A stretch of 64,000 nt of DNA. Origin: Candidatus Margulisiibacteriota bacterium (lineage in GTDB: Bacteria; Margulisbacteria; WOR-1; O2-12-FULL-45-9; XYB2-FULL-48-7). The stretch spans positions 292,482 to 356,481 of the forward strand of contig JALOPZ010000002.1 in NCBI GenBank assembly GCA_025453605.1, in the 5' to 3' direction. The notes beneath the pieces were generated by a model. It made no database searches. It was not told where the DNA came from and saw only the letters and a list, made by a program, of their open reading frames with translations. The position numbers and the translations under genes were made by a program. Shown here piece after piece: positions 4,937 through 47,811 of the stretch. Position 1 is the first letter of the stretch. Each line of letters opens with the position of its first letter.

Positions 4937-4964
4937 TAATCGATATTTAAGCAGTAAAATTTCA
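4937..4964 (-). promoter_or_regulatory. Putative sigma28-like promoter of the GH16 gene
   Basis: - strand TGAAATTTT-N11-ATCGATTA, i.e. GAAA-N15-ATCGATTA; same spacing as the motifs at 17098 and 47785. Confidence 0.5.
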
Positions 4965-5103
4965 CTATGTTACACTTTGGGGAGTAAATTCTGGCTATGT
5001 GGCAACGAGAATAGAATACCTAACGCGTGAATAATAGTCGAATTGCGTAGCCAATACGGTCAAGAACGTCTAGCATAAGATCAAGAGCTGGGGATAAACC
5101 TTA

Positions 5104-6093
5104 CTACTTAATTCTGCTTCTGGCCTTCTGATGCCCGGCCCAATCAATGGAAAAGGTGTGGCTGCCGTCCTTGTTGGCGACAAAAAAGTAATAATTCGTT
5201 TTGGCCGGATAAACCGCCGCTTTGATCGAATCAAGCCCCGGATTGCAGATCGGCCCCGGCGGGAGCCCTTTCCGTTTATATGTATTGTAAGGGGAATTGA
5301 CCGACAACTGGTCGTAAAAGACCCGCTTGCTCGGCCGCTCCAGCGCGTATTTGACGGTCGGATCGGCGGCGAGCGGCATCCCCTTGGCCAAACGGTTATG
5401 GAAGACCGAAGAGATGAGCGGCCGCTCGGCCGGCTTTTGCGCTTCCTTTTCGATGATCGAGGCGAGGGTTAAAACTTCGTGCAGGGTCATCTTGGTATCT
5501 TGCTTCGCCCGCCGCCAGAACGGCAGCACGACCTGATCGAACCGATCGACCATCACCAGCGCCATCGTCTCGGCCGGAGTGTTGAGGTAGAACTGATAGG
5601 TATCGGGGAATAAGTAACCCTCCAGCGATTCGGAGGGGACAAATTTAAAGATATGCCAGTATTTTTCCCGTAATTTGGCGGTGATCCCCTCCTGGACCAG
5701 CCCCTGGAACGGCCGCCAGCTTTTAAATCCTCCCTTTTGCAGCAAGAGCCCCATTTTGTAGATCGACGTCCCCTCCGGCAAGGTGATCGCCTGAACGGGG
5801 AGCGGGACCGTTTCGTTGATCACCAGGCGGGTGATGAGGCGCGGCAGCGGATCGGAGGGGGAAAAATCATATTCACCGGCCTTGAGCCGAGCGGACAATT
5901 TGCAGAACCTGACGAACAACCGGAAGGCGGTGTATCGCGGCAGGATCCCTTGCTGCCGGAGTGTCCGCTCGATCGCCCGGACCGAACTGCCGGCGGGAAT
6001 GATGACCCGGCGGACAGAAAGATCGAACGGGTTAGCCGGCCAGATCATGATGATAAAGAGGATGACCAGCAGCCAGACCGGCTTATCCTTCAT
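5104..6093 (-). CDS. mltG: Endolytic transglycosylase MltG
   Basis: LKAGEY, LEGYLFPDTY, LASIIEKE, LAADPTVKY, SPYNTY, GLPPGPICNPG. Confidence 0.95.
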   Translation of the reverse strand: MKDKPVWLLVILFIIMIWPANPFDLSVRRVIIPAGSSVRAIERTLRQQGILPRYTAFRLFVRFCKLSARLKAGEYDFSPSDPLPRLITRLVINETVPLPVQAITLPEGTSIYKMGLLLQKGGFKSWRPFQGLVQEGITAKLREKYWHIFKFVPSESLEGYLFPDTYQFYLNTPAETMALVMVDRFDQVVLPFWRRAKQDTKMTLHEVLTLASIIEKEAQKPAERPLISSVFHNRLAKGMPLAADPTVKYALERPSKRVFYDQLSVNSPYNTYKRKGLPPGPICNPGLDSIKAAVYPAKTNYYFFVANKDGSHTFSIDWAGHQKARSRIK

Positions 6094-6497
6094 TTCTTTC
6101 TCCGGTCAAGATAGTCTTGCAGAATATGGGCGGCGGCTGAGCGGTCGATGACCTGTCGCCGTTTCTGCCGGGAGAGGCCCGCTTCGATCAGCGTCCGTTC
6201 GGCCGCGGCGGTGGTCAGGCGCTCGTCGTAGGTGGTCACCGGCACGGTCAAAGTCTGCTGCAATTGAGCGACAAAGGCCTGAACCTTGTCCGCGGCCGGA
6301 CCAAGTTCGCCGGACAATCGTTTGGGCAGACCGACGACGATCTCGTCGATCCGGTCGTATTTGGCGAGCAGGGCCTGAAGTTGGGGAATCGCCTGGTCGG
6401 TATCGAGCGTGGCCACCGGTTGGGCGATCAGACCGAGCGGGTCGGAAACGGCGACGCCGATCCGTTTGCTCCCGTAATCGAGCGCCACGATCCTCAT
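6090..6497 (-). CDS. ruvX: YqgF/RuvX RNase H-like nuclease
   Basis: ALDYGSKRIGVAVSDPLG, VVGLP, DERLTT, IDRSAAAHILQ. Confidence 0.95.
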   Translation of the reverse strand: MRIVALDYGSKRIGVAVSDPLGLIAQPVATLDTDQAIPQLQALLAKYDRIDEIVVGLPKRLSGELGPAADKVQAFVAQLQQTLTVPVTTYDERLTTAAAERTLIEAGLSRQKRRQVIDRSAAAHILQDYLDRRKK

Positions 6498-9166
6498 GAG
6501 AGAGCTTGTTTAATGGCGGTCAGCCCCGCTTCGATCTTGGCCGGATCGCCTCCCCCGCCCTCAGCCTTGGTCTCTTTCCCCCCGCCCCGGCCGCCGGTCA
6601 CGGCGTTGAAGGTTTCCGCCAGCTTTTTGGCCGTTAGCCCCGCTTGCGCCAGCTGGTCGGTCACGGTGATCAGATAGATCGGTCGCGCCCCGGTGGAAAC
6701 CAGAATGATCGCCGTCGCTTTCCCCCATCCCCTGACCTTATCGGCCACGGCCCGGAGCTGATCCATGGAGTAGCCGGAGAGGGTTCGCAGGTAAATCACC
6801 TCATCGGTCTCGGTTATCGCCGCGGTGGCCTGCTTGGTCTTGAGCTCGGCGATCGTCCGCTCCGCCTTGGCGATCCGCTCCTGCAGCCAGTCGACCCGGC
6901 CGCGCAGGTGTTCAAGGAACTTGTCGACGTTGACCGAATCGTGGTTGTCTACGCATTTACCGAGCCGCTCCAGCTCAGTGAACTCGATCTCAAAGATGTT
7001 GCTGCCGAGCGATTTTTGGCCGCTCAACTCTTCCTGTTCCCGTTCCAGAGCCCGATAGCGGCTGAGCTGGGCCTCGACCTGGTCGCGGAGCGACTTGGCC
7101 TGGAAAATGATGTGCACTTTGGCTGCCGGACCGGCGACCGCTTCCAGTCGGCGGACGCCGGAGCCGAGCGCGCTCTCCGACATGATCTTGAAAAAAACAA
7201 TGTCGGCGGTGTTCTTAACGTGGGTCCCGCCGCAGAGCTCCAGGCTGTAATCGCCGATCTTCAGCACCCGGACCGTCTCCCCGTACTTTTCGCCGAAGAG
7301 CGCCATGGCGCCGAGGGCGACCGCCTCCTGATAGCTCTTTTTCAAGACCTCGACTTTTAACTTTTCCGCGATCTTCTGGTTGACCAGCCGTTCGATCTGT
7401 TCCAGTTCAGCCGCTTTAACGGCATGAAAGTGATTGAAGTCAAAACGGAGCTTATCCGGCCCGACGTAGGAACCGGCCTGTTTGACATGATCACCGAGCG
7501 TTTCCCGCAGCGCTTTGTGCAGGAGATGGGTGGCGGTGTGATGGGCCTGGATGGCAGCCCGCTTGGCCGCATCGATCGTCGCTTTTAATTTCTGATCCTT
7601 CTTCAGGCCGTCGATATTTTCCAATTCGTGCAGGACGACCCCTTTGGGGGAAACCAGGGTGTTGACCACTCTGACCTCGTGTTTATCCCAGGCCAGCAGG
7701 CCGGTATCGCCGACTTGCCCGCCGCTTTCGCCGTAGAAAGGGGTCTTATCGAGCACGACCAGTTTTTGTGCGGGAAAGAGCGCCTGGACCTTCCCTTCGT
7801 CGGTCGTTTTTTCGTAACCGGAAAAATTGGTTTGATTAAGCTGAGCCAGATCGAGGGCGGCCAGATCGGCTTTCTTGTCGCTGATCCCGGTCTGCCGGGC
7901 CCGCTCGCGCTGGGCCGCCATCTCCCGTTCAAAGCCGGCCAGATCGACCGGGATATTCTGTTCTTTGGCCAGCTCGACGGTCAATTCGATCGGGAACCCG
8001 TAAGTGTCGTGCAATTTAAAAGCGGCGCCGCCATCGATCGTCCGGCGAGCGGCGAGTTCAGTGAACCATTTCAGGCCCGCCTCCAGGGTGGCCAGGAAAG
8101 CGTCTTCTTCTTCCCTGATCGTCTGCCGGATGACCGCGGCCTTGGTCTTGAGATCGGGATAAACGTCGCCGAGGCCGGCGATCACGCCGTCGGCCAGTCC
8201 CTGCAGGAACGGCTTATCGATCCCCAGCTTCCGGCCGTGCGAGACTGCCCGTCGGATCAGGCGGCGGAGAACGTAGCCGCGGCCGCCGTTGCTCGGATAA
8301 ACGCCGTCGGCGATCAGTTGGGTGATCGCCCGGCTGTGGTCGGCGATGATCCGGACCGAGGCGGGACCGCTGTTCTTGGCCAGGGTCTCGACCTGCTTGA
8401 TCAGCGGGCGGAAGAGATCGGTCTCAAAATTATCGGCCACTCCCTGCAGGACCGAGGCGATCCGCTCCAGCCCCATGCCGGTGTCGATCCCCTTCTGCTT
8501 GAGCGGCAGCAGTTCCCCCTGCTCGTTCCGGTTGTACTGGATAAAGACCAGGTTCCAGATCTCCAGCCAGCGGTCGCAGTCGCAGCCGGGGGCGCAGTCG
8601 GGCTTACCGCAGCCGCGCTCCGAACCGGTGTCGTAATAGATCTCCGAACAGGGGCCGCACGGGCCGGTCGGGCCGGCCGACCAGAAATTGTTATCTTCGC
8701 CGAGCCGGAAGATGATCTCTTTGGGGAGACCGATATCCTGGTGCCAGAGGTCAAAGGCTTCATCGTCTTTTTCAAAAACGGCGATGCGCAGCCGGGGGAT
8801 CGGCACTTTCAGCTCCTTGGTCAGCAGTTCCCAGGCGAACTGGATCGCTTCTTTTTTAAAATAGTCGCCGAAGGAGAAATTCCCGAGCATTTCGAAAAAG
8901 GTGTGGTGCCGCGGCGTCTGGCCGACCCGCTCCACGTCGATCATCCGGATGCATTTCTGCGCGGTCGTGACCCGCTTGAAGCGCGGTTTTTCCTGGCCGA
9001 GGAAGATCGGCTTGAACGGGAGCATACCGGCCAGGGTCAGCAGGACGGTCGGGTCGGACGGGACCAGCGAGGCGCTGGGGAGCCGCTGGTGGCCTTTGGC
9101 CTCGAAGAACTTAAGAAAGCGTTCTCTTATCTCGCCCGCCGAGAGGCGGGTTTCAGCGCTTTGCAT
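6494..9166 (-). CDS. alaS: Alanine--tRNA ligase
   Basis: AGMLPFK, HHTFFEMLGNFSFGDYFK, GPCGPCSEI, DTGMGLER, HTATHLLH, ELCGGTH. Confidence 0.98.
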   Translation of the reverse strand: MQSAETRLSAGEIRERFLKFFEAKGHQRLPSASLVPSDPTVLLTLAGMLPFKPIFLGQEKPRFKRVTTAQKCIRMIDVERVGQTPRHHTFFEMLGNFSFGDYFKKEAIQFAWELLTKELKVPIPRLRIAVFEKDDEAFDLWHQDIGLPKEIIFRLGEDNNFWSAGPTGPCGPCSEIYYDTGSERGCGKPDCAPGCDCDRWLEIWNLVFIQYNRNEQGELLPLKQKGIDTGMGLERIASVLQGVADNFETDLFRPLIKQVETLAKNSGPASVRIIADHSRAITQLIADGVYPSNGGRGYVLRRLIRRAVSHGRKLGIDKPFLQGLADGVIAGLGDVYPDLKTKAAVIRQTIREEEDAFLATLEAGLKWFTELAARRTIDGGAAFKLHDTYGFPIELTVELAKEQNIPVDLAGFEREMAAQRERARQTGISDKKADLAALDLAQLNQTNFSGYEKTTDEGKVQALFPAQKLVVLDKTPFYGESGGQVGDTGLLAWDKHEVRVVNTLVSPKGVVLHELENIDGLKKDQKLKATIDAAKRAAIQAHHTATHLLHKALRETLGDHVKQAGSYVGPDKLRFDFNHFHAVKAAELEQIERLVNQKIAEKLKVEVLKKSYQEAVALGAMALFGEKYGETVRVLKIGDYSLELCGGTHVKNTADIVFFKIMSESALGSGVRRLEAVAGPAAKVHIIFQAKSLRDQVEAQLSRYRALEREQEELSGQKSLGSNIFEIEFTELERLGKCVDNHDSVNVDKFLEHLRGRVDWLQERIAKAERTIAELKTKQATAAITETDEVIYLRTLSGYSMDQLRAVADKVRGWGKATAIILVSTGARPIYLITVTDQLAQAGLTAKKLAETFNAVTGGRGGGKETKAEGGGGDPAKIEAGLTAIKQALS
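9135..9150. repeat. Short GC-rich hairpin CCCGCC-GAGA-GGCGGG inside the alaS 5' end
   Basis: Perfect 6-bp stem with a 4-nt loop; lies in an apparent 7-aa insertion (TRLSAGE) between MQSAE and IRERFL. Confidence 0.6.
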
Positions 9167-9761
9167 CGACGATCTCCCTGATCAGGCTCTGGACCTGGTC
9201 GATATCTTTGTCGTCGGTCTCGATGACCTTGACCCGCTCCGGCTCGGCGGCGGCGATCGCCAGGTAGCGGGCGCGCACGCGCCGGTGAAAATCGACGACC
9301 TCCTGCTCAAAACGGTCGGCCTGGCGGTTGCGGGTCGCCCGTTTCAGGCCGATCTCCGGCGAGACGTCGAGGAGAATGGTCAGGTCGGGGAGCGTCCCCT
9401 TGGAGGAGACCATGTTGAGATAGCGGACCAGGTCTTCCGGCAGGCGGCGGCCGCCGATCTGGTAGGCGATCGTCGAATCGATAAAACGGTCGGAGATGAC
9501 CGTCTTCCCCTCTTTTAAGGCCGGCAGGATGATCTTGCTGACGTGTTCGGAGCGATCGGCGGCAAAAAGGTAGATCTCGGTCGTGTCGTCAAGCACGCTG
9601 GTCCGGTCCAGGAGCAGATCACGCAGCGCTTTACCGACCTGCGTGCCGCCCGGTTCGCGGGTCAGCAGGACGCGCTCCCCCTTCCCTTCAAGATAGCTCT
9701 TGAGGCGGGTCGAGTGGGTCGATTTGCCGCAACCTTCGGGCCCTTCAAAAGTGATGAACAT
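9153..9761 (-). CDS. tmk: Thymidylate kinase
   Basis: FITFEGPEGCGKST, TREPGGT, DRFIDSTIAYQ, DRFEQE. Confidence 0.97.
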   Translation of the reverse strand: MFITFEGPEGCGKSTHSTRLKSYLEGKGERVLLTREPGGTQVGKALRDLLLDRTSVLDDTTEIYLFAADRSEHVSKIILPALKEGKTVISDRFIDSTIAYQIGGRRLPEDLVRYLNMVSSKGTLPDLTILLDVSPEIGLKRATRNRQADRFEQEVVDFHRRVRARYLAIAAAEPERVKVIETDDKDIDQVQSLIREIVDAKR

Positions 9762-9764
9762 GGT

Positions 9765-12582: not shown

Positions 12583-12763
12583 TGGAGTGTTAATTTTAGC
12601 GTGTTTTGAGGCGGTATTCAAGGAAAAAGGAGAAAAGTATTATAAGGCCAAAAAGGAGAGATCGATTAAAGCACCTCCTCCCATTTCATGCCCATCTCTA
12701 TTCAAAAAGTTCTCTTATGAAATTGATTTTCCGGATCCAATTTATGTGCTACAAAGGAACCCA

Positions 12764-13234
12764 TTACAATGTAGTTCCATAATGAGCAGCAACATGCCGC
12801 AACTGTTTCCACCAAAAGGATTCTTCGTCACTATCATCGTAATCATAACCAAGTTCTTTTGAAAAAGTATAAAATCCGTCACCTGGCTCCTTGTCGCCGT
12901 TTTTATGAACAACAAATGCCGACAACATGCCTCTATATTCCTTCGTAGTGTCTCTGGACATTTCGCCAATTAGATACCATAAAACAGGATTATAACCCTC
13001 ACCTTCAAGAGTTATCTCGCTCTTCCCAGAATTAACAACTTGACTAAGTTCTGAGTAAGAAACGAATTTATACGGAGATTTCGATTGTATTTTATCTTCA
13101 ATGTATTTACGAACCTCAGCTAAAGCTATCTTCCATTGTCCTTCGGATATCCACTCGTCAAAATGATTATAAGTAGCTTCCCATAAATCATTCAGGTATT
13201 TTTTGTTTGCTTGGTGCTTTTTGTTTTCTACCAT
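12764..13234 (-). CDS. AT-rich hypothetical protein, winged-helix/ATL-like nucleic-acid-binding domain
   Basis: AAGGAG RBS; motif VSYSEL...LIGEMS...GMLSAFVVHK.GD.EPGDGF...FW...V..HY; low GC. Confidence 0.65.
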   Translation of the reverse strand: MVENKKHQANKKYLNDLWEATYNHFDEWISEGQWKIALAEVRKYIEDKIQSKSPYKFVSYSELSQVVNSGKSEITLEGEGYNPVLWYLIGEMSRDTTKEYRGMLSAFVVHKNGDKEPGDGFYTFSKELGYDYDDSDEESFWWKQLRHVAAHYGTTL

Positions 13235-13297
13235 AAATACATCTCCTTGTTTCCAAATGATTCAGATACATTCATTACGGTTAGATCGCCATCTTTA

Positions 13298-13366
13298 TCT
13301 CCTAAACCCCCGATATTTCGGCGGCCCGGAGGTCATGATCGGCGATCGTGTATATCCAGATATTTG
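13298..13366. repeat. Degenerate direct repeat, copy A (uvrA 3' end plus downstream leader/RBS)
   Basis: tctcct..acccccgatatttc..ggc..cggaggtca(t)gatc..ggc..cagatatttg aligns with 14194-14261. Confidence 0.65.
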
Positions 13367-14188
13367 TCATATGCTTTTGGGGCGAGGTATTTCAATGGGA
13401 TAGTCCCCAGAAATTCTAAAAAACTGTTTATTCAATCCTTTATCGTTAAATGTAATAGTATTAATAGGGCCTCCAATAGTTTGCCCTCTATCACTTTGGC
13501 GATATATCTCGGTCATCATTTGGACACTAAAAGCAGCATAGTCACCCAAATCATCTAAATTTCTAATGTAGGGGAAGTTGATGCGTCCGCTGGCTCGATG
13601 TAAATCAAAATATTCCTTCATCTTTGTCTTTAAACCAGCAAAGACCTCCCAGTCTCCATTCCGAATTTCAAACTGTATATTTTTATCAAGGAACTCTTTC
13701 TTATTTTCGCAATTGCACTGCTCCTTATGAGAGAACCACTTGTCATTTTCATGGAATTCTGGTTGGGCGATAAGCTTTCCAGTGCTCTCTTGAACAACAA
13801 TATGGAATACAGCGGGGAGTGTTCCAGACGCACTCGCTTCATAACCAGCGAGATGAAATCCTATCTCTTCTTTTTTAAAACATCTATTAAAGAATTTATT
13901 AATTCTTTCTGCAAGTTCGTTGGCCATTAATGATATTTGATCCCCCTTATATTTGTTCTCAAATTCAGCAATGAAATCACCGACAACTGTATTCATCTCA
14001 AAGAATCGTTTTTGTCCATTTTCTTCAATATCATGAGTCCATATTCCATAACAGGAAGTGCCCAAATTGAGTTTTTTGGAATATATTGTTTTGATTGCTG
14101 TATTTGCTAATGGTCTATCATAATAAATCGCGGTATCAGCTGACATCGCAATTCCATCCTTCGTGATAATGGTGCAAATTAACGTCAT
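13367..14188 (-). CDS. Proteasome-beta/HslV-like N-terminal nucleophile (Thr) hydrolase
   Basis: After Met removal: Thr1, Asp17 (TLICTIITKDGIAMSAD), Lys32, Gly47; later FHLAGY and C-terminal TIGGPI. GAGGAG RBS; low GC. Confidence 0.72.
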   Translation of the reverse strand: MTLICTIITKDGIAMSADTAIYYDRPLANTAIKTIYSKKLNLGTSCYGIWTHDIEENGQKRFFEMNTVVGDFIAEFENKYKGDQISLMANELAERINKFFNRCFKKEEIGFHLAGYEASASGTLPAVFHIVVQESTGKLIAQPEFHENDKWFSHKEQCNCENKKEFLDKNIQFEIRNGDWEVFAGLKTKMKEYFDLHRASGRINFPYIRNLDDLGDYAAFSVQMMTEIYRQSDRGQTIGGPINTITFNDKGLNKQFFRISGDYPIEIPRPKSI

Positions 14189-14193
14189 ATTCT

Positions 14194-14233
14194 TCTCCTC
14201 ACCCCCGGATATTTCATCGGCTGGTAGCGGAGG

Positions 14234-14261
<28 letters not shown>
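14194..14261. repeat. Degenerate direct repeat, copy B (native uvrA 3' end and downstream leader)
   Basis: tctcct.acccccggatatttc..ggc..cggaggtcagatcaggc..caggtacttg; includes the uvrA stop and a GCCGATGA box on the - strand. Confidence 0.65.
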
Positions 14262-17053
<2,792 letters not shown>

Positions 17054-17087
17054 TTACAGCCATTTTACCATATTTTCCTGCCGAGAT

Positions 17088-17124
17088 ATGAAAGGCTGAA
17101 ATTAAGCCGGTTAGCCGTCGAAGA
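17088..17124 (+). promoter_or_regulatory. Putative sigma28-like promoter with conserved 17-mer
   Basis: ATGAAAGGCTGAAATTA (16/17 identical to 47775-47791), then GAAA-N15-GTCGAAGA. Confidence 0.55.
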
Positions 17125-17153: not shown

Positions 17154-18212
17154 ATGGGATTGATCACTCATTTAAGAGGTTTCTGCGCCCGAGCCTACAG
17201 CGAGCAGACGCAGGCTCGTAATCCTTTTATTAATTACCGGATCGTCCTTGACCGGTCCAAATCGCCGGTCGGGTCGATCAGGGAGGCGGCCGTCCAGAAT
17301 CTGCTGGCCCGGATCAAACTCGGACAATTGCCGGCTCCGGTCATTCTTGATCTTTTGACCCATCCCGTCCCTGCCCTGGTCGCCGCCGCGCTTGATCAGA
17401 TCGTGGAAAAAGGAGTGACGGTTGAGCCCCTGTACGAAAAACCGTTCGTCGCTGCTTTGCAGGCCAGGAGCGAGAGTGATCTCGGCCGGCTTTTAAACGT
17501 GAAGACCTTTCCGGCCAACATGCTTCCTCCCCTGTTGAAAGAAGATGCCGGCCTGGCGATCGCCGCGGCGAACATCATGATCGAGCGCGGATTACCGGTT
17601 GGCCGTCATGATGTCGAGGCGTTCATTGCCGCCTTAAAATTATTTCCCGCCGGGGCGCTCCCCGGTAGGATTAAAGCTAAAACTTTTCCGGAGAACATCC
17701 TGGTCTCCCTCCTCTGGCAAAAGGAGAATGCCTTGGTCGATGCCGCGCTTGATGGCCTGACCGCCAGGATCAAGGACCGGACCTGCCGCCCACTTTTGCT
17801 GCAGTGGGTTGAACAGCCGATGGCGGAACGATTGCTGCACCGGTTGGACTTGAAAGCGGCTGACCGCAGTTATATTTTGGACCTGGCGATTACCGTTCAT
17901 CATGAGGTCAGGCAGGGAGTTGATGGCGTTTGCCATAGCGGTTCGGCGACTTACGGACAACCGGGACATATCCAGACAAAATATACGCTGATCGATCAGA
18001 CCCGGGCGAACTTTCTGCTCGCGGAAGCGCTCAAGGCTTCCGGCGACAGTAAAAATGACTTGTTCAGCGGTTTAAGAATGTCGACCAAGCTGGGCAGGTT
18101 TTTGGTCGGCGATAAGTTCGGCAAAACAGTGGACGCCGACAGCCCCGAGCCGCAATTCAGTATCCCGCTGATCGGCAGCTATTGCCGGATCTGGACCGAC
18201 GAATTGATCTAG
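17154..18212 (+). CDS. Orphan alpha-helical repeat protein (about 60-aa repeats)
   Basis: AAGGAGG RBS; repeats delimited by KTFP ([10 protein letters not shown].../[10 protein letters not shown].../[10 protein letters not shown]...); fills the gap between uvrA and hisI. Confidence 0.75.
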
Positions 18213-22204: not shown

Positions 22205-22230
22205 TCTCGCACCTCCTCTCATCTGAACTG

Positions 22231-22259
22231 ATTGTACGACCGGGCCAGCGGACTGTCAA
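22231..22259 (-). promoter_or_regulatory. Near-consensus sigma70 promoter for the DUF5679 gene
   Basis: TTGACA-N17-TACAAT on the - strand. Confidence 0.8.
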
Positions 22260-22261
22260 GC

Positions 22262-23383
22262 CTAATAGAGCTTTTCCCCGGTCGGCTTGACCCTGATCCC
22301 GAACATGTAGTTGCGGCTCCCCGCGTTGAACAGGTCGTCGCCCTGGACCAGCACGTCCATGAAATCCTGCAGCTCGTGCTCGTAGCCGAGCCGGACCTTC
22401 GGATTGCTCGGCCGCGGGTTATTGAGGTCGTAGATGTCGGCCAGGATGTTCCCCCCCTGCTGCGGATAAAGGATCACCCCTCCGCCGAGCTGGCTGTTGA
22501 TCACACCGAGCCGGAAACCGACGTTGCTGCTCGTCTTGTTGGTCAGCAGGAAGTCGAGGAGCGCGGGGGTCCGGCTCGGCCCCTCACCGAACCCGACCCG
22601 GTAATAGGTCGAGTCGCTCTGGATGATGTCGACGTCGCCGCGGACCGCGTTGGCCTGGGAACCGAAATCAACGCCGCCGGAAGCGCGCATGTTGAGCTTA
22701 CCCGCATTCTCGAAAAAGCGATTGGCCGAGGTGAGGGTCTTGGCGGTCTCGCCGATCGTTCCCTTTACATTGGCCTGGAATTTCGGATCGCCGACGATAT
22801 CCTGGATCCCCTTGTTCGTGGCGCGCAGCTCTTTGGTCAGCTTCTCGATCTCCTGGGCGGTCCGGTCGGTTACCACCACGGCGTTGATGAACGAGCTTTG
22901 CAGCTGCGGATTTTCGATGATCTTGCGGACCGCCTGCAGGATCGCGCGGGTTTCTTCCAGGTTCTTGGAGCCGATATCGACAAAGTCGACGATCGCCGAA
23001 GTGCGGGTGCCGCGTAAAACCTCTCCCCGGGCGTACATCGCCTCGGCGGTGCCCGGCTTGATCTCCAGATATTTCACCCCGACGATGCCGTCGTAAGAGA
23101 CCCGAAGGACCGAATCGTTCGGGATCTTGATGCTTTTATCGACCACCGCGAAGATCTTGATATCGTACGGCCCCGGATCGATCTTCATCACCTTGCCGAT
23201 CTTGGAGCCGCGGAAGCGGACTTCGGAGCCGATGGTCAACCCTTCAATGTCGTTGAACGAGGCGATCACTTCGTACCCCTGGCCGATCATGAAGATCTCG
23301 GTCTTCCAGGCGACGACGGCCGCCAGCAGAGCCAGCCCGAGGATGGTAACGATCCCGACCTTGGCGGCGGTGGATAAACCCAT
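22262..23383 (-). CDS. mlaD: MlaD/MCE-family protein (start set at MGLSTAAK)
   Basis: N-terminal TM helix, GLTIGSEVRFRGSKIGKV MCE motif, helical region, beta-rich C-terminus. Confidence 0.85.
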   Translation of the reverse strand: MGLSTAAKVGIVTILGLALLAAVVAWKTEIFMIGQGYEVIASFNDIEGLTIGSEVRFRGSKIGKVMKIDPGPYDIKIFAVVDKSIKIPNDSVLRVSYDGIVGVKYLEIKPGTAEAMYARGEVLRGTRTSAIVDFVDIGSKNLEETRAILQAVRKIIENPQLQSSFINAVVVTDRTAQEIEKLTKELRATNKGIQDIVGDPKFQANVKGTIGETAKTLTSANRFFENAGKLNMRASGGVDFGSQANAVRGDVDIIQSDSTYYRVGFGEGPSRTPALLDFLLTNKTSSNVGFRLGVINSQLGGGVILYPQQGGNILADIYDLNNPRPSNPKVRLGYEHELQDFMDVLVQGDDLFNAGSRNYMFGIRVKPTGEKLY

Positions 23384-23384
23384 A

Positions 23385-24892: not shown

Positions 24893-25646
24893 AACCGATC
24901 TGTTCAATGATGTCCGACGCGATCAGCGCCGGTTCGCCGATCCGGCGGGCGGCCAGATCGCCGGCCCGACCGTGTAAATTAACACCGGTGACCGCCGCGT
25001 TCCAGGCCGGTAATCCCTGCCCGGCTAAGCTGGCGATCATCCCGGTCAGAACGTCACCCGCTCCGGCAGTGGCCATCCCGGGGTTCCCGGACTTATTGAT
25101 GACGACTTTCCCCTCCGGTTCGGCGATCACGGTCTGGTGTCCTTTAAGGACGACGACCGCGCCGAATTTTAACGCCGCCTGCAGGGCGATCCCGCGGCGG
25201 TTAGCCTGCACCGCCTCAACGGTCAGACCGAGCAAAGCGGCCATTTCGCCGGGATGCGGCGTGATTATAGCCCGGCCGGCGAAAGCCTTGAGCTGAGGCA
25301 GGGCGGTCGCGTCTATGACGATAGCGGCAGGCGGCAGAGTGAATTGCTGAATTATCTCATTAACATCTAATTTCTGGTCGATCCCCGGACCGATGGCGAC
25401 TGCATCCGGCGTTACTTTATTAACATCCCGCAGAGAAACAACGATCACTTCTGGGGTGATGGTGTTGGCGTAATTGACGAGATCGTCGGGGACAGCCCAG
25501 TAGACGAGCCCGGAACCGGTCCGGAGCGCGGCGCGCGTTGCCAGCACCCCCGCCCCCAACATCCCGCGCGAACCGGCCACGATCAGGACCTTGCCGTAAT
25601 CACCCTTGTGGCTCGCCTTTTTTCTGGCCGGCAATGACCGTTTCAT
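24870..25646 (-). CDS. nnrD: NAD(P)H-hydrate dehydratase (NnrD, no epimerase domain)
   Basis: HKGDYGKVLIVAGS, AIGPG, ITPHPGEM, MATAGAGDVLTG. Confidence 0.92.
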   Translation of the reverse strand: MKRSLPARKKASHKGDYGKVLIVAGSRGMLGAGVLATRAALRTGSGLVYWAVPDDLVNYANTITPEVIVVSLRDVNKVTPDAVAIGPGIDQKLDVNEIIQQFTLPPAAIVIDATALPQLKAFAGRAIITPHPGEMAALLGLTVEAVQANRRGIALQAALKFGAVVVLKGHQTVIAEPEGKVVINKSGNPGMATAGAGDVLTGMIASLAGQGLPAWNAAVTGVNLHGRAGDLAARRIGEPALIASDIIEQIGYAIQKSH

Positions 25647-38451: not shown

Positions 38452-38486
38452 CTGTCCATTTTACAATAATTCACGCCGGGCGGCAA

Positions 38487-38521
38487 TAAAAAAGCCTCCC
38501 GTGATCGCTCACGGGAGGCTT
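38487..38521 (-). terminator. Intrinsic terminator
   Basis: 13-bp stem aagcctcccgtga/tcacgggaggctt, 4-nt loop, T run on the - strand. Confidence 0.88.
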
Positions 38522-38539
38522 GGCAAAATAAACTACACC

Positions 38540-39052: not shown

Positions 39053-39091
39053 GTATTTCACCTCCTTTTAGTTTGATCTGACAGTTGAGGC

Positions 39092-39751: not shown

Positions 39752-39773
39752 GTGACGCCTCCTTTAAGCCTTA

Positions 39774-39995
39774 TCAGGCTTTGAACATGGCCAGTAGCAC
39801 AGAAACGACCATAAAAGCGATCGCCAATCCCCAGGTGATCCGGTCCAGGCTCTCTTCCATCCCCTTCGGCGTGCCGAACAGCTTGGCCGAACCGCCGATC
39901 CCGCCCAACCCCTCGCCCTTAGCGGTGTGCAGCAGGACAGCTACGATCAGCAGGACCGCGGTCAGGAACTGGACCAGCAGCAATAATGTTTTCAT
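39774..39995 (-). CDS. secG: Preprotein translocase subunit SecG
   Basis: VLLHTAKGEGLGGIGG...LF...LDRITW, two TM helices. Confidence 0.92.
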   Translation of the reverse strand: MKTLLLLVQFLTAVLLIVAVLLHTAKGEGLGGIGGSAKLFGTPKGMEESLDRITWGLAIAFMVVSVLLAMFKA

Positions 39996-40011
39996 TTTTC
40001 ATCCTTTTATT

Positions 40012-40084
40012 TGGAGGTGAGCGGGATCGAACCGCTGGCCTCGGCGTTGCGAACGCCGCGCTCTCCCAACTGAGCTACACCCCC
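40012..40084 (-). tRNA. tRNA-Ala (anticodon CGC), CCA not encoded
   Basis: GGGGGTGTAGCTCAGTTGGGAGAGCGCGGCGTTCGCAACGCCGAGGCCAGCGGTTCGATCCCGCTCACCTCCA; cloverleaf with G3:U70. Confidence 0.96.
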
Positions 40085-40088
40085 GCGA

Positions 40089-41285: not shown

Positions 41286-41293
41286 TACCGCTC

Positions 41294-42346
<1,053 letters not shown>

Positions 42347-42388
42347 TTACCTTTCTATTTCTGTTTTTACGACCTCACGATCAGGCGA

Positions 42389-42411
42389 ATTATAGCAACA
42401 TTTGCTATAAT
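42389..42411. promoter_or_regulatory. Back-to-back extended -10 promoters (gap / lptC-A)
   Basis: attatagcaa-cat-ttgctataat: TGCTATAAT on both strands, forming a 10-bp inverted repeat. Confidence 0.7.
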
Positions 42412-42418
42412 GGTCAAC

Positions 42419-43552
42419 ATGGAAGAGAACCTTTCCTGGAAAAGTATTTTTTGGGGCGTCTTCTTCTCGCTATTTATCCTTGCGCTGACCTATCTGCTGA
42501 TCTCGCCGCGCGAGAACACCTTTTTCACCCGTGATAAAAGCGATAAGCTGGCCGAATTTCGGGAAACCAGGGTCGTCGGCCGCCAGGATGGCCGGACCGT
42601 TTGGGAGATGGTCGCGGCCGGCGGCTGGTCCGATAAAGCCCAGGAGATCACCCATTTAAGCGGGATCAGCAAGGGGAAGATCCTGAACCGGGAAGGCCGG
42701 ACGGTGCTGGCCAACCTGACCGCCCCCAACGGCCGGGCCTGGCGGCATAGCGAGGTCGTTGAAGCGGACGGCGGCGTGACCGCCGTTCTTGACCTGGGTA
42801 AATTCAGCCGGGTCCCGAAGCAAGAACGGGAGTGGACCAGCCTCCGCGGCGATTCGATCAAGTATTTTCCGACCGAGAAACGGTCCGAGGTCCGGGGCCG
42901 GATCAGACTGCAGAAAAAAGAGAGCGTGATCCGGGCCGACGAGCTCAATATCGACCAGGAGAAAAAAACGGCGGTCTTTAACGGCGGGATCAATCTAACG
43001 CGGCGGGACAGTGACCTCCGCGCTGCCTCTCTGGAATATTGGGGGGAGACCGAAGCGTTGGCGGCCCGGGGCGAGATCGACCTCCGTTTAAAAGAGAGCC
43101 GGACCCGCACCGCCATCCGCTGCGATCGGGCCGATCTGTTTGTCGACCTGAACAAGGATATCGCGCTGCAGGGGAGCCTGGAGGTCGTTCAGGGGAAGAA
43201 ACGGTCCCGGGCTGAAAGCGGCCTCTACTCGCGCGCGCAACAGAAACTCCGGCTGCGCGGCCGGACCGTAACGGTGCTGGAGAACAAAACAGTGATCAGA
43301 GCGGAGGAGATGCTCTATTCTCTCCGGAACGGCGACGCCTGGGCGTCCGGAAACGTGGAAGCGACGCAAAAGGAGCGCCAGGCCCGGTCCGACAGCGCTT
43401 TTTACGACGACCGGAACGAAACCGTAACCCTGCAGGGGAACGTCACCCTGAAACGGGGGACCGAATGGCTCCGCTGCCGCCAGGTCACAATCTCGGTCAA
43501 GAAAGAGACCTTTGAAGCGCGCGGGGTCGCGGACAGCAGTTTTAACCTCTAA
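42419..43552 (+). CDS. LptC/LptA (OstA-repeat) LPS transport periplasmic protein
   Basis: N-terminal TM helix, GRQDGRTVWEMVA (LptC-like), repeated IRAD/E...GNV beta-jellyroll motifs; real start MEENL. Confidence 0.75.
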   Translation: MEENLSWKSIFWGVFFSLFILALTYLLISPRENTFFTRDKSDKLAEFRETRVVGRQDGRTVWEMVAAGGWSDKAQEITHLSGISKGKILNREGRTVLANLTAPNGRAWRHSEVVEADGGVTAVLDLGKFSRVPKQEREWTSLRGDSIKYFPTEKRSEVRGRIRLQKKESVIRADELNIDQEKKTAVFNGGINLTRRDSDLRAASLEYWGETEALAARGEIDLRLKESRTRTAIRCDRADLFVDLNKDIALQGSLEVVQGKKRSRAESGLYSRAQQKLRLRGRTVTVLENKTVIRAEEMLYSLRNGDAWASGNVEATQKERQARSDSAFYDDRNETVTLQGNVTLKRGTEWLRCRQVTISVKKETFEARGVADSSFNL

Positions 43553-44787
43553 AAGATCAGCTTTTGGCGGCGCATCGCGATGCTTTGCAGTATCCCCAGG
43601 CCGGCCAGATTCATGACCAGCGACGACCCTCCGTAGCTTAAGAACGGGAGCGGAATACCGACCACCGGCAAAACGCCCAAAGCCATCCCGACGTTAGCGC
43701 CAAAATGGAAAACCAGCATCGTCACGATGCCGTACGCCAGCAGGCGACCAAAACTATCGCGGGCCCCCGCCGCGATCACCAGCCCTCGCCAGACGATCAG
43801 TCCGAAAAGGGAGAGGACCAGCAGGGCCCCAAGCAGTCCGAATTCCTCGCCGACCACGGAAAAGATGAAATCGGAGAACTGTTCGGGGATGAACTGCAGC
43901 TGGGTCTGCGAACCCTGCAAAAAGCCTTTACCCAGAAAACCGCCGCCACCGATCGCGATCTTACTTTGCAGAGTATGGTAACCGGCACCCAGCGGATCGG
44001 CCCCGGGATTTAAAAAAGCGACGATCCGCTGGCGTTGATAAGATTTAAGCATCCCCCAAAGAAAAGGCAACGCGATCCCGACCCCAACATTGGAACCGAG
44101 CACGGTCAGCCAGTGAAACCAGCGCGCCTGGGTAAGAAACAGAGCCAGCGCGACCGCCGCCAGATAGATCAACCAGAGCGGAAAGATCGGCCGGAGCAAA
44201 AGAGAAATAACCGGGGTGATCAGCAGGATCTGCAGGAGCGGCGCAGTCTCGGCTGCCGCCAGCATCCCCAGCAGAATGGCAAAAAAGACGAGCGCGGTCC
44301 CCAGGTCGGGTTGCTTAAAGATCAGGAGAAAAGGCAATCCGACCAGACCAAGTAAAAGCCCGACAGCCCAAACGGAACGGATCCCCCGTTCCCGGGTCAG
44401 AAAAGCAGCCAGCGCGATGATCAGGACCAGTTTGGCGATCTCCGACGGTTGAAAGGAAAAAAAACCGAGCTGGAACCAGCGCTGGGCGCCGGACACCCCG
44501 GCGCCGGTAAAGAGGATCGCGACCAGCAAAAAGATGACCAGCAGGTAAAGATACGGCGCGGCGGCGCGGAGCCGTTGGTAATCAAGGTAACAAAACAAGC
44601 CTAATCCGACGAGACCGAGCAGTAGGGCCAGGCTCTGCTTGGTGACAAAGAGAAAGGGATCGCCGCCTGCCTTCAGCTGCAGCTGATAGGTGGAGCTGAA
44701 GATCGCGGCCAGGCCGATCGCCAGCAAAGCGCCGACCGCCGCCCAGAGGAAGAGATCGGACAGCTTAAGCATCCGGAAATTGATCAT
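43549..44787 (-). CDS. rodA: Rod shape-determining SEDS protein RodA
   Basis: GAQRW, FQPSEIAK, QPDLGT, YQRQRI, GAGYHTLQSKIAIGGG, IPEQFSDFIF. Confidence 0.92.
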   Translation of the reverse strand: MINFRMLKLSDLFLWAAVGALLAIGLAAIFSSTYQLQLKAGGDPFLFVTKQSLALLLGLVGLGLFCYLDYQRLRAAAPYLYLLVIFLLVAILFTGAGVSGAQRWFQLGFFSFQPSEIAKLVLIIALAAFLTRERGIRSVWAVGLLLGLVGLPFLLIFKQPDLGTALVFFAILLGMLAAAETAPLLQILLITPVISLLLRPIFPLWLIYLAAVALALFLTQARWFHWLTVLGSNVGVGIALPFLWGMLKSYQRQRIVAFLNPGADPLGAGYHTLQSKIAIGGGGFLGKGFLQGSQTQLQFIPEQFSDFIFSVVGEEFGLLGALLVLSLFGLIVWRGLVIAAGARDSFGRLLAYGIVTMLVFHFGANVGMALGVLPVVGIPLPFLSYGGSSLVMNLAGLGILQSIAMRRQKLIF

Positions 44788-46187
44788 CGGGTGGTTTCGA
44801 CCGCGGTCAGCAACGCCCGGGCTTTATTCAGCGTCTCCTGATACTCTTTGGCCGGGACCGAATCGTAGACCAGACCGGCGCCGGCCTGAACGTAGGCCTG
44901 GCCGTTCTTGATCAGGATCGTCCTGATCGCGATCCCGGAATCGTGTTCGCCGGAAAAACTGAAGTAACCGACGCAGCCGGCGTACAGTCCGCGCTGGCGG
45001 TTCTCCAGCTCATCGATGATCTCCATTGCCCGCACTTTGGGCGCGCCGGAAACGGTGCCGGCCGGAAAAACAGCCCGGACCAGATCGACGGCGTCGCGCC
45101 CGCGCTTGAGCTTGCCGCTGACGTTGCTGACGATGTGCATGACGTGGGAATATTTCTCGATCACCATCTCTTCGGTCACCCGAACGCTGCCGTAATCGCA
45201 GACCCGGCCAAGATCGTTGCGCCCCAGGTCGACCAGCATGACATGTTCCGCCCTCTCCTTCTTGGAGGCAAGCAGCTCATCGGCCAGTTTCTTGTCTTCG
45301 GCTTCGTCCCGACCGCGCGGTCGGGTCCCGGCGATCGGCCGGAGGGTCGCCGTCCCTTTTTCCAGGCGGACCATTACCTCCGGCGAGGAGCCGACGATCT
45401 GGGTGTTGCCCAGTTGGAAATAGTACATGTAAGGCGACGGGTTGATCGCCCGGAGCGCGCGGTAAACATTGAAAGGATCGGCCTGGCACCTGGTTTCCAG
45501 CCGCTGCGAGAGAACAACTTGAATGATCTCCCCCGCTTTAATGTATTGTCTGGCATGCTGGACCATCTCTTCGTATTCCCGGCGGCTGACATTGCTGCGG
45601 AACTTGACCGGCCGCTGCCGATCAGCTTCCAGCTCGGTCGTCCGGAGCGGTTTTTTTAGTTTTGCTTCCAGGGCGGCGATCTGCCGGACGGCCTGCCGGT
45701 AAGCCCGGGCCGGATCCCCCTTGATCCGGGCATTAGCAATGATCACGATCCGGTGCTTTAAATGATCAAAAGCGAGCAGCGTTTCGGCCAGAATGAACTG
45801 CATCAGCGGCAGGTTCAGATCGTCGGGATTGGCGTTCGGGATCCTTTCGATCTGCCGGACCGCGTCGTAGCTGATATAACCGACCAGTCCGCCGGAAAAA
45901 CGAGGCAAACCAGCCACCCTGACCGGGCGGTATTTGGCCAGAATTTCTTTGATCTGCGCGAAAGTGCGCGGCCTTTGCACCTCGTTCTTCGGACAGGTCC
46001 CCAGGAACGAATAACGGGCGATCTTTTCTCCCCCTTCGACCGATTCGAGGAGAAAGGAGTATGGCCCGGCGATCTTTTTGAACGCCGAGACCGGGGTTTC
46101 CATATCGGCCACGATCTCCTTGTAGACCGGGACCAGATTCCCTTTGCGGGCCAAACGCTTGAACTGTGCCAGATCCGGTTTGATCAT
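44784..46187 (-). CDS. trpE: Anthranilate synthase component I
   Basis: FLLESVEGGEKIARYS, NPSPYMY, RPIAGTRPRG, EHVMLVDLGRND, FPAGTVSGAPKVRAM. Confidence 0.95.
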   Translation of the reverse strand: MIKPDLAQFKRLARKGNLVPVYKEIVADMETPVSAFKKIAGPYSFLLESVEGGEKIARYSFLGTCPKNEVQRPRTFAQIKEILAKYRPVRVAGLPRFSGGLVGYISYDAVRQIERIPNANPDDLNLPLMQFILAETLLAFDHLKHRIVIIANARIKGDPARAYRQAVRQIAALEAKLKKPLRTTELEADRQRPVKFRSNVSRREYEEMVQHARQYIKAGEIIQVVLSQRLETRCQADPFNVYRALRAINPSPYMYYFQLGNTQIVGSSPEVMVRLEKGTATLRPIAGTRPRGRDEAEDKKLADELLASKKERAEHVMLVDLGRNDLGRVCDYGSVRVTEEMVIEKYSHVMHIVSNVSGKLKRGRDAVDLVRAVFPAGTVSGAPKVRAMEIIDELENRQRGLYAGCVGYFSFSGEHDSGIAIRTILIKNGQAYVQAGAGLVYDSVPAKEYQETLNKARALLTAVETTR

Positions 46188-47002
46188 TTTGTTCGCTCCG
46201 TAACGAAACGGGCCAGTTCTGCCAACCGCGCCGCTTTGGGCCCGAACGGCCGCAGGGCCGCCAGCGCCCGCTCCTTTTCCGCCGCCGCCATTTGTCGCGA
46301 ACGGTTCAGGCCGACAACATACGGAAAACCTTTTTTCACGTCAGACCTGACCGGCTTGCCCAGCTGCGCGGCGGTGGCGGTCACGTCAAGTATATCATCG
46401 GCGATCTGAAATGCCATCCCCAGGTGCTCCGCGTAGGCGGTCAGCGCCTTAAGCTGGCGGCCGGTCGCGCCGCAGAGCTGCGCCGCCCCCCGAACGCACG
46501 CGCTTAGAAGCGCGGCTGTTTTCCAGCGGTGGATCGCCCGCAATTTCTGAAGGGTTAAGCGCCGCTGCGGCGCCGTGACGTCCGCTACCTGGCCTTCGAC
46601 CACCGTCAGCGCAGCTTGCGCCAGCTCCAGCACGGCGGCCGGCCGGTCGGCAATGATCGCAAAGGCTAAAGTGTTGAGCGCGTCCCCGGCCAGGATCGCC
46701 AGGGCTTCACCGTAGACTTTATGACAGGTCGGCTTGCCGCGCCGCAACTGCGAGTCGTCCATCGCCGGCAGATCGTCATGAATTAAGGTAAAGGTATGGA
46801 TCATTTCCACGGCGCAGGCGAACGGCAAGACCTTTTTAGCCGGCTTGCCCAGCGCCTGGGCCACGGCCAGGCAGAGGATCGGCCGAAACCGTTTCCCGCC
46901 GGCAAAAACCGAGTAACGCATCGCCCTGGCCAGTTTGCTTTTCCTGGGGAGGTAGCGATCGAGCGCCCGGTTAACGTCTGACAGTGATCCCTTTTCGCTC
47001 AA
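46184..47002 (-). CDS. ispA: Farnesyl/geranylgeranyl diphosphate synthase
   Basis: [39 protein letters not shown]; start uncertain. Confidence 0.9.
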
Positions 47003-47744
47003 GATGATCTTTGATCTCCTTAATGGTCAATTCCCGGTAATGCAGCAGCGAGGCGAGCAACGCGGCATCGGCCCGCCCCTTGAGGAAAGCGTCATGAATG
47101 TGCTCGATCTTCCCGGCCCCGCCGGAAGCGATGACCGGAATATTGGTCGCGTCTTTGATCGCCCGGGTCAAATCGAGGTCGTAACCGTCTTTGGTCCCGT
47201 CCCGGTCCATGCTCGTTAACAGGATCTCGCCGGCGCCGAGCTGCTCACCTTTTTTCGCCCACTCGACCGCGTCGAGCCCGGTCGGTGTCCGCCCACCATG
47301 GGTATATACTTCCCATCTCGTTACTCGTTCCTCGTTACCCGTTACTCTCTTGGCATCGATCGCCAGGACCACGCACTGGCTGCCGAATTTGGCTGCGCCC
47401 TTTTCGATCAAGGCCGGATCTTTGACCGCCGCGGTGTTAACGGAAACTTTATCGGCCCCGCTCGCCAGGATCTCCCGCATCGTCTCTACGTCATTGATCC
47501 CGCCGCCGACCGTAAAGGGGATAAAGATCTTTTCAGATACTTTTTTGACCACTTCGATCATGATGAAGCGCTTGTCGGACGAAGCGGTAATATCGAGGAA
47601 GACCAGCTCGTCGGCCCCGGCTCGGTCATATAACGCGGCCAGCTCGACCGGATCGCCGGCATCCCGGAGTTCAACGAATTTTGTCCCTTTAACAACGCGC
47701 CCTTCGGTCACATCGAGGCAGGGAATGATCCTTTTAGCCAGCAT
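46971..47744 (-). CDS. hisF: Imidazole glycerol phosphate synthase cyclase subunit
   Basis: [41 protein letters not shown]. Confidence 0.98.
47317..47344. repeat. Heptamer tandem repeat (CTCGTTA)x4 inside hisF
   Basis: ctcgtta ctcgttc ctcgtta cccgtta; encodes [10 protein letters not shown] in the loop after IDAKR. Confidence 0.8.
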
Positions 47745-47774
47745 TTTCCCAATTATAATGCCTTTATCGTGATA

Positions 47775-47811
47775 ATGAAAGCCTGAAATTATTTACTATT
47801 TACGCTGAAAT
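47775..47811 (+). promoter_or_regulatory. Putative sigma28-like promoter with conserved 17-mer
   Basis: ATGAAAGCCTGAAATTA, then GAAA-N15-GCTGAAAT. Confidence 0.5.

Follow-up and report, generated by a model that had tools for sequence, protein, structure and literature searches.

A candidate sigma28-type promoter class upstream of single, species-specific genes in a Saganbacteria genome

What drives the transcription of genes that stand alone between housekeeping genes in a genome of Candidatus Saganbacteria (WOR-1, Margulisiibacteriota)? The question is raised by a stretch of 64,000 nucleotides (nt) from contig JALOPZ010000002.1 of assembly GCA_025453605.1 (positions 292,482 to 356,481), hereafter the window, in a genome (G000) of 1.53 Mb, 58% G+C and five contigs that is 91% complete; G001 denotes a same-genus relative, and C1 and C2 denote contigs. 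A sequence-only reading of the window had proposed that three accessory genes, a GH16 glycoside hydrolase gene and two orphan genes called here 17154 and 47874, carry the same bipartite upstream motif, and had attributed it to a dedicated sigma28-like factor. All three motifs are present in the sequence at the positions claimed. Our assessment, with a probability of about 0.78, is that an alternative factor of the sigma-70 family, one of sigma28 (FliA)-type specificity, recognises all three sites as promoters.

The bipartite element is TGAAAT-N16-CGATA. Its exact core occurs 43 times in the genome with a spacer of 16 nt, compared with 0-4 occurrences for any other spacer length between 10 and 23 nt. 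We built a position weight matrix (PWM) of two halves, one for the -35 and one for the -10, on these 43 sites and scored the genome at the right spacing and at eight wrong spacings. This seed-only PWM, from which all three window sites are excluded, found 52 sites of at least 24 bits (0.25 at wrong spacing) and 129 of at least 10 bits (34.75 at wrong spacing). A refined PWM found 94 sites of at least 20 bits, against a mean of 2.75 at the eight wrong spacings, and 104 sites of at least 18 bits, against 7.1. These counts establish both the motif and its spacing constraint. The consensus begins with an A/T-rich flank and c-TGAAAT-t, continues with a spacer of 16 nt that becomes T-rich towards its 3' end and closes with G-A/C, and then reads C-G-A-T-A-W-W, with T-purine about 7 nt later. 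There are about 95-105 such promoters per genome, which form a second class beside the housekeeping TGnTAnAAT class and account for roughly a quarter to a third of the recognisable promoters in the genome, a share too large for a small dedicated regulon. Thirteen of the strongest sites lie within 50 kb (C1:228-277 kb), each before its own gene, often a very large one (up to 1612 amino acids, aa); these genes include GH8, an SLH protein, a Ser/Thr kinase, a PfkB-ARMT1 fusion, an NTP-transferase and several giant genes with no Pfam family.

Within the window, only the three sites starting at 4964, 17097 and 47784 reach 18 bits. By the refined PWM they score 33.5, 20.8 and 34.0 bits and rank 30, 88 and 28 among the 212 hits of at least 10 bits. 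This PWM was trained on all hits of at least 16 bits, the three window sites included, and may have learned from them; they were therefore re-scored independently with the seed-only PWM. Sites 4964 and 47784, the latter with C-13 replaced by T, still score 30.1 and 25.2 bits and are secure, because these values lie where the wrong-spacing background is practically nil. Site 17097 is the weakest of the three and has a weak -10: it falls to 10.2 bits, a level at which the background is 34.75 against 129, and its -10 half contributes 4.6 bits in the refined and -6.5 bits in the seed-only scoring. It is conceivable on these scores that this site alone is a chance look-alike and that orphan 17154 is transcribed from something else, but we consider this unlikely, since the -35 half is near-optimal (16.6 bits), the CGA core is unbroken, the site is correctly oriented 57 nt before the ATG within a 100-nt divergent intergenic region, and orphan 17154 is exactly the kind of gene that the motif class drives. 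Site 17097 thus probably belongs to the class. Transcription is predicted to start near 4930, 17131 and 47818, which would give the GH16 gene, orphan 17154 and orphan 47874 leaders of about 33, 23 and 56 nt with the ribosome-binding sites GGAG, AAGGAGG and GGAGG, respectively.

Two narrower patterns noticed earlier in the window carry less weight. The pattern TGAAAT-N15-YYGA matches three times in the window compared with 0.67 expected, and 2 of 100 shuffles also reach three, so that this test taken alone is marginal. The string ATGAAAG[G/C]CTGAAATTA was correctly reported as shared, as it is present at 17088 and 47775 and nowhere else in the genome, but it is not a separate element, because it consists largely of the A/T-rich-then-C flank of the general motif plus three extra bases.

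The motif is conserved well beyond this genome. At spacer 16 the exact core was found in 31 of 31 genomes of the order in 10-121 copies, compared with 0-3 for spacer-13 and reversed controls; it was likewise found in every one of the 33 class genomes (29-107 copies) and in the other 58 genomes of the phylum sampled (1-83 copies). Conservation extends to individual genes. Among nine GH16 homologue loci in other genera, with 34-45% protein identity, six have a site of at least 21 bits directly upstream, and the partial homologues of orphan 47874 in two other genera both carry the motif at the same relative place. The gene for the primary sigma factor, rpoD (C1:176771), has the motif about 50 nt upstream with 33.5 bits, as does rpoD in two of two other Margulisiibacteriota records (L198:549 and L199:553; 29.7 and 22.1 bits), whereas only 3 of 78 rpoD loci of other phyla reach 18 bits anywhere within the 700 nt scanned. 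The position of rpoD behind a promoter of the alternative class implies cross-regulation between two sigma systems. In two relatives (G022 and G016) one identical 27-mer instance of the motif, TGAAATTTCGCTTTCATTTTAACGATA, occurs together with near-copies on many contigs, often at their ends; this recurrence suggests a repeated element or a multi-copy gene with this promoter.

The distance from the motif to the gene also behaves as in a promoter. At 38 of 96 sites of at least 20 bits with a downstream open reading frame (ORF), the start codon lies 34-38 nt after the T of TGAAAT, which is 5-9 nt after the -10. The housekeeping box TGnTAnAAT occurs 302 times in the genome, compared with 42-120 times for five scrambled versions, and in 125 of the 302 cases an ORF of at least 80 aa begins exactly 6-9 nt downstream of it (controls 2/120 and 4/78). 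Since the same peak follows both kinds of box, leaderless messages are a trait of the whole genome. The sharp peak gives indirect support to a start point about 7 nt after either -10, a prediction in keeping with the 6-8 nt anticipated in the sequence-only reading.

The motif class stands apart from the housekeeping promoters, as had been proposed. No motif site of at least 20 bits occurs in the 200 nt upstream of any of the 46 tRNA and tmRNA genes, many of which are preceded by TGnTATAAT, and TGnTAnAAT lies within 120 nt upstream of only 1 of 40 motif genes, so that the class is not of the sigma70 extended -10 type. In the window, hisF and uvrA have TATAAT or TGGTAAAAT 7-8 nt before the ATG, again as noted earlier, and both boxes point away from the promoters of the adjoining orphans. 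The TGGTAAAAT box of uvrA fits the TGnTAnAAT class and lies inside the inserted segment, divergent from the promoter of orphan 17154. One could still suppose that RpoD itself reads both classes, the motif being either a second housekeeping consensus peculiar to the lineage or a site that RpoD reads together with a cofactor, as the class is very large, rpoD itself belongs to it, and the start-codon offset equals that at the TGnTAnAAT promoters. We regard this as very unlikely. RpoD (353 aa) is an ordinary group-1 sigma factor, with 490 bits to RpoD models and regions 1.2, 2, 3 and 4; the tRNA genes are served by canonical extended -10 boxes; the two motifs hardly ever co-occur; and a -10 with G-12 and C-13 separates sigma28 from sigma70 recognition according to a study of the E. 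coli sigma28 structure (10.1101/2020.01.02.893370).

The same study (10.1101/2020.01.02.893370) describes C-13 G-12 ATAA as conserved in E. coli sigma28 promoters, gives -13C and -12G as the chief difference from sigma70 promoters, and reports that mutation of either strongly reduces promoter activity. The motif class has this -10: over 106 sites, C is found in 83, G in 104 (column 29, the place of T-12 in sigma70 promoters), A in 105, T in 72 and A in 93, followed by W W. The sigma28-like character suspected in the sequence-only reading is thus borne out for the -10 and the spacing, the C-G-A-T-A-A/T with its near-invariant G and A being shared with FliA/SigD/WhiG promoters. The sigma28 consensus is TAAA-N15-GCCGATAA, and the motif has the same geometry, GAAA-N15-nCCGATA, with a strictly fixed spacing in which 15 nt likewise separate the AAA of the -35 from nCCGATA. 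The -35 sequence agrees only partly with the TAAA(GTTT) of sigma28, being TGAAAT(T) here and not TAAAGTTT. A minority -35 variant, GCAAGTTT or CACAAGTTT with the same -10, occurs at the G000 sites ranked 48, 89, 91 and 101 and at G001:C2:522172, and the classical TAAAGTTT is nearer to this variant than to TGAAAT.

Which protein could read such promoters? The genome encodes RpoD, sigma factors of 257 and 197 aa, a 167-aa extracytoplasmic function (ECF) sigma factor, and sigma54. Group-3-like candidates of the kind that the sequence-only reading called for are present in duplicate, namely the FliA/WhiG-like 257-aa protein and the 197-aa protein, which has two domains and a FliA-like region 4. 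Both are encoded in flagellar clusters, as are fliA and sigD. The gene for the 257-aa protein lies between flgI with a small flgJ-like ORF and flgB-flgC-fliE-fliF-fliG-fliH-fliI-fliJ, and that for the 197-aa protein ends an operon of fliK-like, flgE-like, fliM, fliN, fliP, fliQ, fliR, flhB and flhA. The closest solved structures to the 257-aa protein are 6pfj_A (88.9 bits), listed as 'RNA polymerase sigma factor' with no more specific name and which we take to be WhiG, and E. coli FliA (73 bits). Close orthologues of the 257-aa protein (59-87% identity) occur in 32 of 33 genomes of the class, and beyond the class there are only distant relatives (29-39%); the 197-aa protein occurs in 33 of 33 genomes of the class and in 55 of the 58 other genomes of the phylum (88/91 together). 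Set against the motif counts, these phyletic patterns do not discriminate between the two, the 197-aa protein being near-universal in the phylum and the 257-aa protein class-wide but for one genome. The 257-aa three-region sigma factor may well be the reader of the motif, although we hold this tentatively, and the 197-aa two-domain sigma factor next to flhA is a possible, somewhat doubtful reader.

The flagellar set around these genes comprises FliF, a short FliG, FliH/I/J, FliM/N, FliPQR, FlhB, FlhA, FlgB/C/F/G, FlgH, FlgI and FliE, together with a protein resembling FliK and a single short one resembling FlgE. In the 91%-complete genome there were no hits for Flagellin_N, Flagellin_C, MotA_ExbB, FlgM and MCPsignal. 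Among the 31 genomes of the order, FlhA is present in 30 and Flagellin_N in one (G003), where the ORF is flagellin-like, has a signal-peptide-like N-terminus and carries no motif (best score 15.5 bits), so that it does not tie the motif to a classical late gene.

Several observations weigh against sigma28-type recognition, in addition to the weakness of the third site and the overlap in the training set described above. The best family of the 257-aa protein is FliA_WhiG (TIGR02479) with 146 bits over model positions 2-223 of 224, which is below the curated cut-off of 189.6. We compared it at the -10-contact residues of E. coli sigma28 named in the structural study (H26, R34, R58, Q63, T69, Q73, R74, R84, R94, R95 and R98; 10.1101/2020.01.02.893370), and only 3 of the 11 are identical (T69, R74 and R98), R84 being conservatively replaced by K and the rest differing. 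These contact residues do not define the family, however, because the best solved relative, 6pfj_A, also differs at Q73. In G096, a 95% complete genome of the same class that has the most motif copies of the class (107) and possesses the 197-aa protein, no orthologue of the 257-aa protein was found even by a lenient search. The candidate sigma genes have no motif upstream: among the sigma genes, sites of at least 18 bits are present before rpoD and sigma54 only, no site of at least 10 bits was found upstream of the 167-aa and 257-aa genes, and the region of flhA and the 197-aa gene has one weak hit of 14.9 bits (C1:21630), inside the operon. No flagellar or chemotaxis Pfam family was found in the 87 downstream proteins scanned, so that the genes do not form a classical sigma28 regulon. 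ECF sigmaW promoters have the consensus TGAAAC-N16-CGTA, and TGAAAT is as close to this -35 as to TAAAGTTT. Finally, the gene calls rest on a crude ORF model, under which the downstream ORFs of 46-105 aa may include some that are not genes, and the 'leaderless' start codons some that are wrong. In the window, for example, the longest ORF of an LptA/LptD_N-like gene (41294-42337, - strand), the true start of which is probably after 42337, overlaps the opposite-strand GAPDH gene (41450-43552, + strand), and longest-ORF starts are therefore unreliable in this genome.

The resemblance to ECF promoters raises the possibility that the motif is read by an ECF-type sigma factor, namely the 167-aa protein encoded at C2:157.9 kb, whose best hits among NCBIfam models are RpoE-like, and that the genes form an envelope-stress-type regulon. 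What the motif has in common with the sigmaW promoters is the -35 word, a spacer of 16 nt and a -10 that starts with CG. We nevertheless find this explanation very improbable. ECF promoters have an AAC-type -35 and a CGT-type -10, whereas the -10 here has CGA, with A in 105 of 106 sites, and continues sigma28-like with ATAWW and not with TA. In addition, ECF sigma factors usually autoregulate, and the 167-aa gene has no such site, as given above; about 100 promoters, that of rpoD among them, lie far above typical ECF regulons; and envelope proteins are depleted among the downstream genes, so that the gene set differs in content as well as in size.

The coordinates of the three window sites, their genes and related features are collected in Table 1.

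Table 1. Positions of the motifs, candidate promoters and genes discussed in the text (window positions unless a contig is named).
Feature	Position	Strand	Remarks
TGAAATTTT-N11-ATCGATTA	4964..4937	-	upstream of GH16 gene
TGAAATTAA-N11-GTCGAAGA	17097-17124	+	upstream of orphan 17154
TGAAATTAT-N11-GCTGAAAT	47784-47811	+	upstream of orphan 47874
Putative alternative-sigma promoter of GH16 gene	4938..4964	-	TGAAAT 4964-4959, 16-nt spacer, -10 box CGATT 4942-4938
Putative alternative-sigma promoter of orphan 17154 (probable member)	17097..17123	+	TGAAAT 17097-17102, 16-nt spacer, -10 box CGAAG 17119-17123
Putative alternative-sigma promoter of orphan 47874	47784..47810	+	TGAAAT 47784-47789, 16-nt spacer, -10 box TGAAA 47806-47810
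Housekeeping-type extended -10 box TGGTAAAAT of uvrA	17062..17070	-	8 nt before ATG 17053-17051
GH16 glycoside hydrolase	3659..4897	-	412 aa; lipoprotein-type N-terminus; Pfam Glyco_hydro_16 E = 2.7e-32
Orphan 17154	17154..18212	+	352 aa; Pfam-less; inserted between hisI and uvrA
Orphan 47874	47874..49199	+	441 aa; Pfam-less; inserted between hisF and PHP-domain gene
Flagellar clusters	C1:18.9-28.2 kb and C2:178-189 kb		outside the window

The three genes were described as singly inserted, and synteny alignment with the same-genus genome together with homologue searches shows that they are indeed species-specific single-gene insertions. Over window positions 1-52384, which align to a syntenic 73 kb of G001, G000-specific segments make up 12.7%, and all three motif sites lie inside such segments (chance probability 0.002). 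The GH16 gene stands as a single gene between guaA and mltG/yceG. It has homologues in 17 of 30 relatives but none in G001, where its segment (3658-5122) is replaced by an unrelated 942 nt; in G001 the guaA-mltG slot is occupied by a different, unrelated gene, the site of which (22.3 bits) is the sole one of at least 18 bits in the 73 kb. Segment 17054-18210, which carries orphan 17154, is cleanly absent from G001, where hisI abuts uvrA, and no homologue of this orphan was found in the 30 relatives. The segment with orphan 47874 (47746-49204) is replaced in G001 by an unrelated 244 nt between hisF and the PHP gene; only residues 1-92 of this protein find a match, with 41-44% identity, in 2 of the 30 relatives, and its N-terminal 100 residues match nothing beyond their own cluster in a collection of 5.8 billion proteins. 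ESM Atlas models of both orphans suggest HEAT/ARM-like helical repeats (predicted local distance difference test, pLDDT, of about 0.65; template modelling score, TM, of about 0.5), and for orphan 17154 the pLDDT is 0.65 and the TM about 0.5 to HEAT-repeat proteins. As a lead only, orphan 17154 is possibly a HEAT/ARM-like and orphan 47874 possibly a HEAT/LRV-like alpha-solenoid. The two were also considered as paralogues, but BLASTP detects no relation between them (E = 0.34).

The slots themselves are variable. The uvrA-hisI slot holds a motif-driven HExxH lipoprotein in G003 (30.1 bits), a motif-driven 294-aa protein in G006 (22.7 bits), and other ORFs without the motif in G004 and G011. The motif might therefore be taken for a regulator operator or for part of a small mobile cassette that brings orphans into intergenic slots, given that the window genes are clean insertions relative to the same-genus genome, that in other genera these slots are filled by other genes with the motif and that two relatives have the identical 27-mer at several of their contig ends. 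We consider this highly improbable, as similarity is limited to the two boxes, no direct repeats were seen flanking the two clean insertion junctions, the fixed spacing, free spacer sequence, fixed orientation and fixed start-codon distance are properties of promoters, and conserved genes such as rpoD and GH16 have kept the motif upstream.

Other variable places in the window are without the motif. Between dnaB and uvrA, positions 12599-14244 form a low-GC island (44% G+C in the 12-14 kb bin, about 58% elsewhere), represented by 137 nt in the same-genus genome, with two Pfam-less ORFs (12764-13234 and 13367-14188) and no motif site on the strand of the genes. The second ORF, the 'Ntn' gene, had been listed as a possible further member; the best score on its own strand upstream of 14188 is -1.3 bits, and it drops out of the set. 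Relative to the window, G001 has an 18.4-kb insertion at 22222-22282 (C2:537539-555962) and one of 6.8 kb at 25625-25640 (C2:559323-566086), both without a site of at least 18 bits.

To characterize the genes downstream of the motif, we took the first plausible ORF after each site. The Pfam scan covered 87 of the 106 proteins, complete for ranks 1-60 and with 27 from ranks 61-106, of which ORFs shorter than 138 aa, ORFs crossing 20-kb tiles, one duplicate, the window's own orphan and some distant or doubtful ORFs were left out. Proteins with no family at E = 1e-6 or better were counted as Pfam-less, and 90 random operon-first genes without the motif served as controls. By this measure 61 of 87 downstream proteins are Pfam-less (43/60 in ranks 1-60 and 18/27 later) compared with 21 of 90 controls (Fisher p = 4e-10), and the excess persists among proteins of at least 200 aa (31/48 versus 7/57, p = 4e-8). 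The proposal of a dedicated sigma factor for dispersed orphans therefore stands in that dispersed, domain-less genes are enriched, but not in the idea of a small, orphan-only set. The members with known families include three Ser/Thr kinases, GGDEF, HD and PAS proteins and a PAS histidine kinase, the regulators LacI, MarR, Rrf2, ROK and RpoD, as well as GH8, GH16, an SLH protein and LspA. The products were also expected to be secreted or to act on a host. Host interaction finds no support, and nor does secretion: N-terminal hydrophobic segments are present in 6% compared with 28% of controls, and transmembrane segments in 21% compared with 41%.

The motif genes differ from the controls in composition as well. 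Their G+C content at third codon positions (GC3) is 0.70 versus 0.74 (p = 1e-10), and residues 2-26 of the proteins show an excess of Arg and Pro and a deficit of Glu, Asp and Lys, with a net charge of +3.0 versus +1.3 (p = 5e-10). This N-terminal bias, which is seen in both leaderless and leadered members, could reflect a targeting signal, young genes or mis-set starts. The proteins are mostly unrelated to each other, as an all-against-all BLAST returned only six distinct related pairs and one duplicate entry. A defence-gene reading was rejected: 60 of 63 downstream proteins have no PADLOC match, and the three hits amount to generic Ser/Thr kinase similarity to PD-T4-6 models.

The picture that we propose is that a FliA-like sigma factor encoded inside the flagellar basal-body operons would read the motif, with transcription starting at a purine about 7 nt past the -10. 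The class would drive mainly single, species-specific genes without a known domain or signal peptide, and also a conserved core including rpoD and signalling proteins; in the window it would switch on a GH16 lipoprotein and two probably alpha-helical orphans, each alone in a variable slot between housekeeping genes. Such a class would differ from known sigma28 regulons, which have a dozen or two promoters compared with about 100 here, and whose class III targets are flagellin, hook-associated proteins, stator, chemotaxis genes and FlgM, none of which is among the annotated targets here. Flagellar basal bodies without a filament are known from Buchnera, where basal-body, ring, rod and export-gate genes are likewise kept without flagellin. 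Buchnera is an insect endosymbiont, however, whereas the present lineage is free-living in wetland or groundwater and has two FliA-like sigma factors and a large sigma28-type promoter class, its basal body being predicted from genes. Non-flagellar uses of sigma28-family factors are reported for the late genes of Chlamydia and for the WhiG sporulation genes of Streptomyces (10.1101/322701, PMC12871210). There too, a FliA-family sigma factor is reported to have been kept without a flagellar filament and redeployed on other genes. The regulons concerned comprise few genes and serve a developmental step, whereas the class here takes up a large share of the promoters and is centred on fast-turnover orphans, and, unlike in those organisms, it occurs alongside conserved genes for the flagellar basal body and export.

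A further reading, which we consider rather improbable, is that the filament-less, stator-less basal body serves as a protein-export device, that the motif class descends from the flagellar 'late substrate' tier, and that the roughly 100 orphans are its cargo or effectors. This would fit because FlhA is retained in nearly all genomes of the order and flagellin in hardly any, because both FliA-like sigma genes lie in basal-body operons, and because the downstream proteins are poor in signal peptides, have biased N-termini and turn over slot by slot between genomes. It counts against this reading that the GH16 protein is an ordinary lipoprotein, as is one slot neighbour, and that the set contains rpoD and cytoplasmic regulators. 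If true, it would mean a large, flexible effector repertoire in a free-living, non-motile lineage.

Our literature search, directed at flagella in Saganbacteria and sigma factors in Margulisbacteria, found no paper on this promoter class; the text of the main genome paper (PMC6349859) does not mention flagella, motility, sigma or secretion, while its supplements could list flagellar genes. The motif makes gene regulation accessible at the sequence level in an uncultivated class that neighbours the Cyanobacteria. The organism appears to use two promoter classes, both often leaderless, one of which is tied to the flexible part of the genome with genes of no known function. Co-regulated 'hypothetical' genes become predictable from DNA alone across dozens of metagenome-assembled genomes. 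If the motif is read as we propose, a flagellar-type sigma system would have survived and expanded after the loss of the filament, which raises the question of whether the orphans are cargo of a relic flagellar export apparatus.

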